Assembly: GCA_945952025.1 (NCBI GenBank)
Contig: CAMFGW010000011.1
Location: forward strand, 10,377-74,376
Reading direction: 5' to 3'
DNA length: 64,000 bases
From: an uncultured Rhodobacteraceae bacterium
Lineage (GTDB): Bacteria > Pseudomonadota > Alphaproteobacteria > Rhodobacterales > Rhodobacteraceae
Shown here one piece after another: positions 31,829 to 36,182 of this stretch. The translations under genes were made by a program, and so were the position numbers. The notes under the pieces were generated by a model. The model worked only from the letters and a program-made list of their open reading frames with translations. It was not told the DNA's origin and made no database searches. Every line of letters starts with the position of its first letter. Positions within the stretch are counted from its first letter, which is position 1.

Positions 31829-33053
31829 GGCGACGGCCGACCTGATCGTCATTGGCGCGGGCGTCGTCGGCCTGTCGGCGGCGCTCGCGGCGCAGGCGCG
31901 CGGGCTCCGCGTCACCGTCATCGACCGCGAAGGCCCCGCCGCCGGCGCCTCGGCCGGCAATGCCGGGGCCTTCGCCTTCACCGACATCTTCCCGCTGGCC
32001 AGCCCCCGCATCATCCGGCAGGCGCCGAAATGGCTTCTGGACCCGCTCGGCCCCCTGACCGTGCCGCCCCGCTACGCGCTGAAGATCGCGCCCTGGATGT
32101 GGCGCTTCTGGCGGGCCAGCCACCCGGCGCAGGTCCAGGCCTCGACCGTCGCGCAGACCGCGCTCATGGACCTGTCGCGGGCCGCGCTTCTTGAGTTTCT
32201 GGAGGCACAGGACCTGACCCCGTTCCTGCGCCGCGACGGCCAGTTGCAGGTCTATGAGGGCGAGCGCGAGTTCCGCCGGAGCCTGCCCGGCTGGGAGGCG
32301 CGCGACAGCGCCGGGATCGAGTTCCGCCATCTGGCGGGGGACGAGATTTCCGAGCTGCAGCCGGGACTTGCCCCCCGTTTCACCCACGCCACCTTCACGC
32401 CGGGCTGGTGGTCGGTCACCGACCCGAAGCTCTACACGCTGGCGCTTGCCGACCGCTTCCGTGCCAAAGGAGGCACCCTGCGGATCATCGAGGCGACGGC
32501 CCTGACCGACAGCGGCGTCCAGACCCGCGACGGCCTGCTGACCGGCCGCGTCCTGCTGGCCGCCGGCGCCTTTTCCCATCGGCTGGCCCGCACCGCCGGC
32601 GTCCGCATCCCGCTCGAAACCGAACGGGGCTACAACACGACGCTGCCAAGCGATGCCTTCGACCTGCGCACGCAGTTGACCTTCGGCGGCCACGGCTTCG
32701 TCGTCTCGCGCCTCTCGACCGGCATCCGTGTCGGTGGCGCGGTCGAACTAGGGGGCCTCGACCTGCCCCCGAACTACGCCCGCGCCGACGCCATGCTGAA
32801 GAAGGCCGCCGCCTTCCTGCCCGGCCTGCGCACCACCGGGGGCACGCAATGGATGGGCTTTCGCCCCTCGCTCCCCGACAGCCTGCCCGCCATCGGGCCG
32901 CTCCCCGGCCTGCCGAACACGCTCTGCGCCTTCGGGCACGGGCACCTTGGCCTGACCCAGTCGGCCGGCACCGCGCGCCTCATCGCGGACCTGCTGACGC
33001 GGCGGGCCCCTGCCCTGAACCTTGCGCCCTTCTCCCCCGCCCGCTTCGGATAG
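31818..33053 (+). CDS. FAD-dependent D-amino acid (D-hydroxyproline) dehydrogenase
   Basis: VIGAGVVG, ASAGNAG, ERGY, WMGFRPSLPDSLPAIG and FGHGHLGLT motifs. Confidence 0.82.
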   Translation: MPPEATADLIVIGAGVVGLSAALAAQARGLRVTVIDREGPAAGASAGNAGAFAFTDIFPLASPRIIRQAPKWLLDPLGPLTVPPRYALKIAPWMWRFWRASHPAQVQASTVAQTALMDLSRAALLEFLEAQDLTPFLRRDGQLQVYEGEREFRRSLPGWEARDSAGIEFRHLAGDEISELQPGLAPRFTHATFTPGWWSVTDPKLYTLALADRFRAKGGTLRIIEATALTDSGVQTRDGLLTGRVLLAAGAFSHRLARTAGVRIPLETERGYNTTLPSDAFDLRTQLTFGGHGFVVSRLSTGIRVGGAVELGGLDLPPNYARADAMLKKAAAFLPGLRTTGGTQWMGFRPSLPDSLPAIGPLPGLPNTLCAFGHGHLGLTQSAGTARLIADLLTRRAPALNLAPFSPARFG

Positions 33054-33057
33054 ACCC

Positions 33058-34059
33058 ATGTCAAACCACGCCTTCCCCTGCATCGACGGCCATACCTGCG
33101 GCAATCCGGTCCGGCTCGTCACCGGCGGCGCGCCGGTCCTGAAGGGCGCGACCATGCTGGAAAAACGCGCGCATTTCCTGGCCGAATACGACTGGATCCG
33201 CACCGGCCTCATGTTCGAGCCGCGCGGACACGACCAGATGTCGGGCTCGATCCTCTACCCGCCGACGCGGGACGATTGCGACGTGGCGGTCCTTTTCATC
33301 GAAACGTCCGGCTGCCTGCCCATGTGCGGGCACGGCACCATCGGCACGGTCACGATCGCACTGGAAAACGGCCTGATCCGGCCCGAAACACCCGGCACCA
33401 TCCGCCTCGACACGCCCGCCGGCCGCGTCGACGTAACCTACCGGCAAGAGGGCCGCTTCGTCGAGGAGGTGCGCCTGACGAACGTCCCCGCCTACCTTCA
33501 CGCCGAGGGGCTGACGGCCGAAGTCGAGGGGCTGGGCGAGGTCGCGGTGGACGTGGCCTACGGCGGCAACTTCTATGCCATCGTCGAGCCGCAGCGCGCC
33601 TTCCGGGACATGGCCGACCACAGCGCGGGCGAACTCGTGGGCTTCAGCCGCAAGCTGCGGGCGGCGCTCAACGAAAAATACACCTTCGAGCACCCCGAAA
33701 TAGCCGCCATCCGCGGCCTGTCGCACATCCTCTGGACCGGCGCACCGCGCCACCCCGAGGCCGATGCCCGCAACGCCGTCTTCTACGGCGACAAGGCCAT
33801 CGACCGCTCGCCCTGCGGCACCGGCACCTCGGCCCGGATGGCGCAACTGGCGGCCAAGGGGCGGCTGAAGGTCGGCGACGATTTCGTCCACGAAAGCATC
33901 ATCGGCTCGCTCTTCAAGGGCCGGGTCGAGGCGGCGGCGGTGGTGGCGAACCGCCCCGCGATCATCCCCTCGATCGCCGGCTGGGCGCGTGTCACCGGAT
34001 TCAACACCATCTTCATCGACGACCGCGACCCCTTCGCCCACGGCTTCGTCGTCGCCTGA
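33058..34059 (+). CDS. 4-hydroxyproline 2-epimerase (proline racemase family, Cys/Cys)
   Basis: IDGHTCGNP, PMCGHGTIG and DRSPCGTGT motifs; both catalytic Cys are present. Confidence 0.88.
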   Translation: MSNHAFPCIDGHTCGNPVRLVTGGAPVLKGATMLEKRAHFLAEYDWIRTGLMFEPRGHDQMSGSILYPPTRDDCDVAVLFIETSGCLPMCGHGTIGTVTIALENGLIRPETPGTIRLDTPAGRVDVTYRQEGRFVEEVRLTNVPAYLHAEGLTAEVEGLGEVAVDVAYGGNFYAIVEPQRAFRDMADHSAGELVGFSRKLRAALNEKYTFEHPEIAAIRGLSHILWTGAPRHPEADARNAVFYGDKAIDRSPCGTGTSARMAQLAAKGRLKVGDDFVHESIIGSLFKGRVEAAAVVANRPAIIPSIAGWARVTGFNTIFIDDRDPFAHGFVVA

Positions 34060-34161: not shown

Positions 34162-34782
34162 TCAGTTCTTGGCGTAGAATTCGACGACGAGGTGCGGTTC
34201 CATCTGCACCGGATAGGGCACGTCGCCCAGCGCCGGCTGGCGCACGAAGGTCGCGGTCATCTTGTTGTGGTCGACTTCCAGGTAGTCCGGCACGTCACGC
34301 TCGGCCAGGCCCACGGCCTCGAGCACGATGGCAAGCTGGCGCGACTTGTCGCGGACGGCGATCACGTCGCCTTCCTTGACGCGGTAAGAGCCGATGTTGA
34401 CCCGCTGGCCGTTCACTGTGACATGGCCATGGTTCACGAACTGGCGGGCGGCAAAGACGGTCGGGACGAACTTGGCGCGGTAGACCACGGCGTCCAGGCG
34501 GCGTTCCAGAAGGCCGATCAGGTTTTCACCCGTGTCACCCTTCACGCGCTCGGCCTCGCCGTAGATCTTGCGGAACTGTTTTTCGGTCAGGTCGCCGTAA
34601 TAGCCCTTCAGCTTCTGCTTGGCGCGCAGCTGCGTGCCGAAGTCCGAGAGCTTGTTCTTCCGGCGCTGGCCGTGCTGGCCGGGGCCGTACTCACGCTTGT
34701 TGACCGGGGATTTGTCGCGGCCCCAGATGTTTTCGCCCATCCGGCGGTCGATCTTGTACTTGGCAGAGGTGCGTTTGGTCAC
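34162..34782 (-). CDS. rpsD: 30S ribosomal protein S4
   Basis: [31 protein letters not shown] and [13 protein letters not shown] motifs. GTG start, AAGGAG SD. Confidence 0.97.
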
Positions 34783-34900
34783 CGCTGATCTCCTTTTGCG
34801 TCTTCAAAAGGGCGTTGTCCTTTCCCCTTTCGGGGCGACAGGCTTCCCCTTGCGGGGTCCACCAACACCAATGATGCCCGGGGCCCAAAGGCCCGGACGG
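34783..34900 (-). ncRNA. Structured 5' leader of rpsD (candidate S4-responsive r-leader)
   Basis: Multi-stem fold with two GNRA hairpins (CCCC-GCAA-GGGG and CCCC-GAAA-GGGG), an enclosing GGUGUUG/CAACGCC stem, and a CCUUUUG/CAAAAGG hairpin covering the SD. Confidence 0.55.
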
Positions 34901-34904
34901 GCGG

Positions 34905-34932
34905 CTTATACAGGGGCGGAAGGGGGAGTCAA
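34905..34932 (-). promoter_or_regulatory. sigma70 promoter of rpsD
   Basis: Minus strand TTGACT (34932-34927)-N16-TATAAG (34910-34905). Confidence 0.7.
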
Positions 34933-34973
34933 GGGCGCCTCGGGGCAAGGCACGGACGGGATCAGGAAACGCC

Positions 34974-35143
34974 CCGCGTTTCCCCCGACCCCCGTGGGAA
35001 CGGTTCCGCTGGACCGTCCGTGTCACAGATCAACGAAGGCCAGCGCCCGCCGATGGCGGGGCGGGCGCTGGCCGATGGCCATTGGGCCACCGGCGGGGAC
35101 AGGGGGGAGAGGACTTCGCATGGCAGGGTCAACGGCCCCTGCC
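34974..35143 (+). repeat. Dispersed palindromic intergenic element, copy A
   Basis: Shares CCGCGTTTCCC...TGTCACAGA...GGCCAGCGCCCGCCGATGGCGGGGCGGGCGCTGGCC...GCATGGCAGGGTCAACGGCCCCTGCC with copies B and C. Confidence 0.88.
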
Positions 35144-35153
35144 CCACCCCGGC

Positions 35154-36182
35154 CTAGCGCGCGCCCCAGGTATCGCTCAGCCGATAGCCCTCCGGCCAGG
35201 GGTCCGAGGGGTCGAGCATGTGCTGGTGGATCCCCGTGATCCAGCCGCGCCCGCTGATTTCGGGCAGGATCGCCGGCACGTCGCCCACCCGGGTCGTCCC
35301 GACGATCCGGCCCGCGAAGGTCGAGCTGATCAGCGACACGGTCGTCAGCCGGTCCGCCCCGCTCATCTGCCCCCGCGCGTGCAAGACCGCCATCCGCGCC
35401 GAAAGCGCCGTCCCGGTGGGCGAGCGGTCGACCTTGCCCGGCTGGATCGCCACCGCCGACCCGGCGCGCAGCTCGTTCCCCTGTCGTGACAAGGGCCCCG
35501 CGAAGAGGCAGAAGGAAAAATGCCGCCAGTCCGGGTTGGTCGGGTGGTGAAAGCCCAGCTGCTCGGTCCCCGCCCGGGTGATCCTTGCCCCGAGCTTCGC
35601 AATGTCATGCGCCTCGTCCGGCGTGAGCTGGAACCCCAGCGCCCGGGCATCGACAAAGACGAAACTGTCACCGCCGAAGGCCGTGTCGACCTTCAGCGTG
35701 CCCAGCCCCTCGACTTCGAGCGTCGCATCGAGTTTCTGCGCAAAGCTCGGCAGGTTCTGGACGAAGATGCGCTCGGCCTTGCCGTCCCGGCACTCCGCCC
35801 GCACCTTCACCAGACCCCCGGGCGCTTCCAGCAGGAACTCGGTCACCGGCTCCTGCATGGGGATGATGCCGCCGTCCAGGAGGACAGTCGAGACGCAGAT
35901 CGAGTTCGAGCCGGACATGGGCGGCGTGTCCTCCGGCTCCATGATGATGAAGGCCGCGGCCGCGCCCAGCGTTTTGGGCGGCACCAGCAGGTTCACATGC
36001 CGAAAGACCCCGCCCCGCGGCTCGTTCAGGACGAAATTGCGCAGGGTCTGATCGCGGGCGATGAAACGGCTCTGTTCCCAGACCGTCTCACCCGGCGGCG
36101 GCGCCACGCCCCCGACGATGACATCGCCGACCTCGCCCTCGGCATGGGCCGAAATCACATGGACGGTGCGGCTGCTGCGCAT
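35154..36182 (-). CDS. Proline racemase-family protein with Ser/Thr catalytic pair, probable trans-3-hydroxy-L-proline dehydratase
   Basis: [19 protein letters not shown] and DRSPTGTA: both canonical Cys are replaced (Ser, Thr). Confidence 0.75.

Follow-up and report, generated by a model that had tools for sequence, protein, structure and literature searches.

Does the stretch between the promoter and the GTG start codon of rpsD in this uncultured Rhodobacteraceae bacterium form an RNA through which ribosomal protein S4 could regulate its own translation, and if so, is it of a kind already described? Knowledge of how ribosomal proteins (r-proteins) autoregulate through mRNA leaders is good for E. 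coli and Bacillus and patchy elsewhere, and no alphaproteobacterial leader for S4, which helps to nucleate assembly of the 30S subunit, is reported in Rfam 15 or in the literature that we searched. The window, i.e. the whole 64,000-nucleotide stretch of DNA analysed here, had received a first-pass annotation that proposed such a leader, drawn as a 5' hairpin, a multi-helix junction and a hairpin over the Shine–Dalgarno sequence (SD). Every complementary segment that it listed is indeed present, on the minus strand and in position.

A stand-alone rpsD and its leader

The gene is identified as rpsD by its open reading frame and by NCBIfam equivalogs (NF003717, 271.5 bits; TIGR01017, 241.5 bits), and in clustering the proteins closest to the window's own S4 are those of Gemmobacter, Frigidibacter and Paracoccus. 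It is monocistronic, with its own promoter, its own intrinsic terminator (34140–34111) and a convergent gene downstream, and was thus rightly described before as standing alone. The promoter named earlier (34905–34932, ahead of the GTG) can be read directly in the sequence as TTGACT, a 16-nt spacer and TATAAG; a simple promoter scan skipped it for the sole reason that it demands a final T in the −10. Of 133 family members, 120 have a recognisable rpsD promoter in the corresponding position, and the transcription start used below, near 34898, is the one predicted from this putative promoter. Among those 120 the promoter is very uniform: the −35 is TTGAC followed by T, A or G, the spacer is 16 nt in 111 and 17 nt in nine, and the −10 is TATAAG in 102, with G instead of the usual final T.

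Two paralogous genes of the proline racemase family flank rpsD on either side. The downstream neighbour (33022–34059, plus strand, i.e. opposite to rpsD) encodes a 4-hydroxyproline epimerase (NF010578, 595.8 bits), and the upstream one (35154–36182, minus strand, ending at 35154) a trans-3-hydroxy-L-proline dehydratase (NF047722, 622.4 bits).

Between promoter and start codon, the minus-strand leader consists of a three-way junction followed directly by a helix that pairs the SD with an anti-SD strand. Its features, and those of the gene, are as follows.

34932–34905, minus strand: promoter; −35 TTGACT 34932–34927, 16-nt spacer, −10 TATAAG 34910–34905, read from the sequence
34902–34876, minus strand: optional 5' hairpin, GCCCG..GGGCC-UUUG-GGCCC-CGGGC; folds in the minimum free energy (MFE) and centroid structures
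34869–34863 with 34817–34811, minus strand: P1, junction closing helix, GGUGUUG/CAACGCC
34862–34858, minus strand: J1/2 junction strand, GUGG(A); its G, G, G nearly invariant
34857–34846, minus strand: P2 hairpin, CCCC-GCAA-GGGG
34842–34840 with 34821–34819, minus strand: likely base of P3, CCU/AGG
34839–34836 facing 34823–34822, minus strand: P3 internal loop, GUCG opposite AA
34835–34824, minus strand: P3 variable stem-loop, CCCC-GAAA-GGGG
34818, minus strand: J3/1, A; invariant in 92/92 sequences
34810–34805 with 34798–34793, minus strand: P4, anti-SD/SD helix, CUUUUG/CAAAAG, loop AAGACG
34795–34780, minus strand: translation initiation region; SD AAGGAG 34795–34790, AUCAG 34789–34785, CG, GTG 34782–34780
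34782–34162, minus strand: rpsD (30S ribosomal protein S4), GTG start 34782–34780; open reading frame and NCBIfam equivalogs
34140–34111, minus strand: intrinsic terminator after rpsD, GGCCGCGC-CUGGU-GCGCGGCC followed by a U-run; terminator scan and sequence

Across the upstream regions of the family, an almost invariant core emerges that reads, in order, CAUUGGUGUUGGUGG, a 4-bp GNRA hairpin, A-N-N-CCUGUCG, a variable hairpin, ARAGGACAACGCC, CUUC, a variable loop, GAAGGAGAUCAG, 2–3 nt and the start codon.

Evidence for the fold

Folded as a single sequence, the 136-nt leader reaches −55.9 kcal/mol, compared with −52.2 ± 4.0 kcal/mol for dinucleotide shuffles (z = −0.93), a stability that 37 of 200 shuffles also reach. 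Single-sequence folding is not better than chance, and the support for the leader is comparative. When 92 sequences were aligned to the model, 99.0% of cells held standard pairs and both-side changes were found in 14 of the 21 pairs. None of 500 shuffles matched the observed values on any of five measures, and sliding the 3' partners by 1–3 columns left pairing at only 50–61%. Because this alignment had been fitted to the model, we also ran RNAalifold on a plain, unfitted MAFFT alignment, where it found the same five helices independently. Together, these comparisons argue strongly that selection acts on the fold of the leader at the level of RNA.

Could the conservation instead belong to the DNA, as in a transcription-factor operator or promoter-proximal element, or mark an independent small RNA? 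The element starts only ~5–30 nt past the predicted transcription start and is very conserved in sequence, as these readings would have it. However, the compensatory changes are strand-specific and include G-U intermediates, and helices are kept while their sequences change completely between families. Furthermore, the element ends at the start codon, and a terminator scan of the mRNA strand between it and the start codon found no terminator. We regard both readings as extremely unlikely.

The individual helices draw on this variation to different degrees. The 5' strand of P1, GGUGUUG, is invariant in typical members, and its compensatory changes come from divergent Rhodobacteraceae (four of seven pairs) and from comparison across families in a joint alignment (five of seven); the junction closed by GGUGUUG/CAACGCC, as first drawn, is thereby borne out. 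The junction strand J1/2 is GUGGN in 80 of the 92 sequences and G[C/A/G]GGN in the others, and is kept in Parvibaculaceae too (see below). All four pairs of the CCCC-GCAA-GGGG helix (P2), also part of the original drawing, covary, and its loop is a GNRA tetraloop in 91 of 92 sequences (GCAA in 77, GCGA in 13, GUAA in one).

The third arm needs redrawing in part. The first-pass annotation had placed an outer helix, UGUC/GACA, around a CCCC-GAAA-GGGG stem. The inner stem stands, since all three modelled pairs covary, while its length varies among the sequences. The outer helix is contradicted by the variation: it has two bases (CA) in common with CAACGCC, which makes it mutually exclusive with P1, and it is broken in all eight sequences in which the first C of CAACGCC (34817) has changed. 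In the same eight, the P1 pair 34863–34817 goes from G-C to C-G (four) or U-A (four). Because C34817 covaries with G34863 rather than with the G of UGUC, the base of P3 is more likely CCU/AGG, the pairing that RNAalifold also predicts; these six bases are invariant in the 92 sequences and across families, and covariation speaks neither for nor against them. The internal loop above is GUC[G/A], in the 92 sequences, opposite mostly AA or AG. A kink-turn reading of this CCU-GUCG/AR-AGG loop was set aside: the kink-turn consensus requires GA on the 3' strand, and the strand here is AR.

P4 adjoins P1 with no spacer (C34811–G34792 offers an alternative register) and covers the AAG(G) of the SD AAGGAG. 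A hairpin pairing SD bases had been proposed from the start, and it covaries (three of four modelled pairs, with 98% of cells paired), is recovered by RNAalifold and is kept across loop lengths of 3–105 nt, some of the loops bearing extra hairpins. From this pattern of substitution, the SD-pairing helix appears to be firmly under selection.

The spacer between SD and start codon is unusually conserved in its own right: it is GAGAUCAG in 67 of 92 sequences, and its CAG is nearly invariant, occurring in Parvibaculaceae as ACAGCGAUG. No pairing partner for the conserved AUCAG/CAG (34789–34785) is supported by variation among the sequences, and the spacer may be a contact for a protein or for the ribosome. 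An outer helix between AUCAG and UUGGU at the 5' end fails, as U changes to A in at least six genera without compensation, and it would compete with P1. UUGGU pairing with ACCAA of codons 2–3 was likewise rejected, the wobble base of the Thr codon being free among ACC, ACG, ACA and ACU.

The 5' hairpin was only half right as a part of the leader. It is real in this sequence, where both the MFE and the centroid structures contain it, but it lies outside the conserved element. Spacing between the −10 and P1 is bimodal, with 12–13 nt in 65 of 120 genomes, which therefore have no room for the hairpin, and 27–47 nt in the other 55; in three relatives inspected, the longer stretch folds into a hairpin whose sequence differs. 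The 5' hairpin is an optional module outside the conserved core.

These features bear on whether the leader might be a constitutive structured 5' UTR without feedback, one that sets a fixed low translation efficiency, stabilises the mRNA or serves as an RNA thermometer. Nearest-neighbour pairing probabilities over 77 orthologues, which are unreliable in GC-rich sequence and deserve little weight, have a predicted median of 0.85 for P4 and 0.03 for P1; P4 would then form without any ligand, and inhibition by the RNA could be constitutive. A short helix holds the SD, as might be expected of a thermometer, about half of the genomes carry the extra 5'-terminal hairpin, which is of an mRNA-protecting kind, and the single-sequence folding energy is unremarkable. 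Yet a hairpin alone would suffice for a stability element or a thermometer, and the 5' hairpin is dispensable in the 65 genomes just mentioned. Here ~30 nucleotides of the junction do not vary in more than 90 genera and are kept between families although every helix changes in sequence, a pattern that points to a specific partner. We consider a purely constitutive role unlikely. That P1 is selected yet, in the model, weakly populated unaided is a weak hint in the same direction, as it fits a helix that needs a bound partner.

Distribution and a diverged form

In BLASTN searches, the leader matched 87 of 101 genera of the same family, and in all 30 fetched loci derived from these matches it lay directly upstream of rpsD. 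A covariance model built from 18 BLAST-derived sequences and a hand-drawn structure (R1) matched 143 of 144 Rhodobacteraceae genomes, each exactly once. Among 80 named loci fetched by S4 similarity, R1 matched 79, and 77 of these matches end at the start codon; the sole unmatched locus has merely 5 nt of contig upstream. The named loci place the family as Rhodobacteraceae in the broad sense, with genera that include Paracoccus, Cereibacter, Gemmobacter, Roseobacter, Ruegeria, Sulfitobacter, Yoonia and Dinoroseobacter. In all loci checked, the leader's linkage to rpsD is exclusive and single-copy. It is thus near-universal in a family that includes abundant marine roseobacters and the models Cereibacter (Rhodobacter) sphaeroides, Paracoccus, Ruegeria and Dinoroseobacter. 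Conservation and covariation in relatives, the check that the first-pass annotation had put forward, proved strong (143/144 genomes; 14/21 pairs).

Outside the family R1 finds little. It matched none of six genomes of a sister family (f2) in the same order, and in one genome from each of ~150 alphaproteobacterial families it gave only two weak matches (L062 and L063), both false positives, as rpsD is absent from either locus.

The leader had been supposed to be lineage-specific. This holds insofar as it is carried by 143 of 144 Rhodobacteraceae, but a diverged homologue occurs in Parvibaculaceae and in a third family. Among the rpsD upstream regions of 40 other families, one (G250, whose S4 is named Parvibaculaceae by NCBI) contained the same junction strings; a broader model (R2) scored it at 20.7 bits, with the match ending at the start codon. 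BLASTN with the G250 leader found matches in 35 of 41 Parvibaculaceae genomes, and R2 aligned 17 of 20 fetched Parvibaculaceae loci (L230–L249), all ending at the rpsD start. A further model built from the joint alignment (R3) identified the third family, f84 (G322, L250:1501–1622, minus strand; 54 bits), again directly upstream of rpsD. An R3 match in genome G245 was discarded as a false positive, since the rpsD of that genome is on another contig. The fold was thus found in three of the ~150 alphaproteobacterial families sampled. A fourth is possible: the upstream region of G275 (SAR116 or Paracoccaceae, according to its sources) contains GUGG, CCUGUCG and AAAGGAG, at a score of only 7.6 bits.

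In Parvibaculaceae and f84, P1 is rewritten as CGCACCC/GGGCGCG and the anti-SD/SD helix as UUUCC/GGAAA; an A-C opposition within P1 is conserved in all 17 aligned Parvibaculaceae sequences. GUGG, CCUGUC[G/A] and ARAGGA remain unchanged while the closing helix has exchanged nearly all of its base pairs. This contrast between rewritten helices and a frozen junction amounts to natural mutational data that point to the likely contact nucleotides. The Rhodobacteraceae and Parvibaculaceae may have the element in common by descent or by transfer.

Proposed function and relation to known S4 leaders

The leader has the general marks of an r-protein leader: it lies in the 5' UTR, its structure covaries and the ribosome-binding site is involved. 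We think it probable (roughly 0.7), judging from the sequence comparisons, that it is an autoregulatory translational operator for S4. We infer S4 as the ligand because the element is exclusively linked to monocistronic rpsD, and likewise infer that the effect is repression and that it comes about by occlusion, not entrapment. Where a single r-protein gene stands behind a leader, that protein is the likely, default ligand (the rule of Eckert and Weinberg; PMC7247131), and for S4 itself autoregulation is established in E. coli (PMC3616713) and Bacillus (PMC7247131), through leaders that are unrelated in structure.

In the mechanism that we propose, S4 in excess of free 16S rRNA would bind the three-way junction and stabilise P1. 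As no spacer separates them, P1 and P4 could stack as one continuous helix, and bound S4 would hence stabilise the P1–P4 stack. The SD would then be withheld from the 30S subunit and S4 synthesis would fall. In an alternative sub-mechanism, the 30S subunit might instead bind but be held in a non-productive complex, as at the alpha operator of E. coli.

The junction might also bind something other than S4, be it a protein (a different r-protein, an assembly factor, a global regulator) or a small molecule, for instance a growth-rate alarmone; S4 synthesis, and with it 30S assembly, would then be gated by that ligand. In favour of such a ligand, the leader resembles neither the S4 site of 16S rRNA nor any known S4 leader. 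The known S4 leaders of E. coli, Bacteroidia and Flavobacteria lack rRNA resemblance too, however (PMC3616713, PMC7247131), and we identified no features in the leader like those of a ligand pocket. Moreover, the element occurs before rpsD only, once per genome, whereas a signal that controls ribosome synthesis should turn up on several operons for r-proteins. We judge such a ligand quite unlikely, and it would be a still bolder conjecture that the junction senses an alarmone, other small molecule or assembly factor and, by gating S4, sets ribosome production in Rhodobacteraceae and Parvibaculaceae.

Mimicry of the protein's rRNA site, common among r-leaders though not obligatory, provides no argument for S4 at the level of sequence, as the leader has no sequence similarity to the S4-binding 5' domain of the organism's own 16S rRNA above that of shuffles (18 versus 17.5 ± 2.3). 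The comparison covered the 5' domain because the 16S copy is cut by a contig end: the sole copy in the assembly (G000 contig C30, minus strand, last ~600 bases) stops at about E. coli position 590.

How does the leader compare with S4 leaders described elsewhere? The first-pass annotation named no Rfam family for it, and Rfam 15 indeed gave none at gathering score anywhere in the 64-kb window; at E ≤ 10, the 301-nt region 34700–35000 yielded only noise, with no S4 family and no RF00140. Full-text literature searches on an rpsD or S4 leader in Rhodobacter, Rhodobacterales and Alphaproteobacteria returned nothing relevant. The E. coli alpha-operon operator (RF00140, Alpha_RBS) is likewise a target of S4 feedback that includes the ribosome-binding site and acts at translation (PMC3616713). 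It is, however, a nested double pseudoknot that overlaps the start of the rpsM coding sequence in the rpsM-rpsK-rpsD-rpoA-rplQ operon and works by 30S entrapment, whereas the element here combines a three-way junction with an SD helix before a stand-alone rpsD, has no supported pseudoknot and does not match the RF00140 model.

The leader of Bacillus and other Firmicutes, reportedly that of Grundy and Henkin, with an alignment by Deiorio-Haggar et al., likewise precedes a monocistronic rpsD and mediates autogenous regulation by S4. Its conserved GUAA imitates 16S rRNA (PMC7247131), whereas the tetraloop here is GCAA or GCGA, with GUAA in one of 92 sequences; there is no similarity to 16S, and the secondary structure is unrelated. 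Eckert and Weinberg (2020) reported S4 leaders in Bacteroidia, Clostridia, Flavobacteria and Fusobacteriales, and none for Alphaproteobacteria (PMC7247131). The evidence for those candidates is of the same kind as ours, a covarying structure before rpsD or its operon with the ligand deduced, but they come from other phyla and have hairpin or other folds, and their Rfam models find no match here at E ≤ 10. The leader would work as an r-leader, yet belongs to no described S4 leader family.

If the S4 reading is correct, the leader would bring to four or five the number of structurally unrelated RNAs that S4 may recognise. Such a new target would help in studying how a single protein can read RNAs of many different folds, whether or not these mimic rRNA. 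The element is compact (95 nt), and its covariance model can be used in genome annotation.

A second type of rpsD leader came to light in at least eight of the 40 other alphaproteobacterial families, 45–65 nt before a stand-alone rpsD (a further locus, G280, is left out of all counts and claims about this type). It consists of UUCC(C)GRGAAWG, two variable hairpins and ACUAYCGGGACAAS, with a closing helix that covaries (CCGA/UCGG, CCGG/CCGG, CCAA/UUGG), at the following loci.

L114:46–140, minus strand: second leader type
L125:170–245: second leader type
L126:170–248: second leader type
L129:174–243: second leader type
L130:171–244: second leader type
L134:153–233: second leader type
L137:181–244: second leader type
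L139:46–113, minus strand: second leader type

Like the Rhodobacteraceae leader, it stands before a lone rpsD and has an apparent multi-helix junction, with GGACAA at the 3' side of the junction in both. It differs in its other junction sequences and helix layout, its SD does not adjoin the closing helix, and none of R1–R3 matches it. With no Rfam match at gathering score either, the second type is probably another undescribed class of S4 leader.

The sister family lacks the element and other alphaproteobacteria have a different leader; the Rhodobacteraceae element is therefore not essential to S4 control. In that sister family (f2; L146–L149), the rpsD leaders are ~150 nt long behind a TTGA...GATAAGG-like promoter and belong to neither type; they have a string AGGAUU(C/U) in common, which may mark a third leader.
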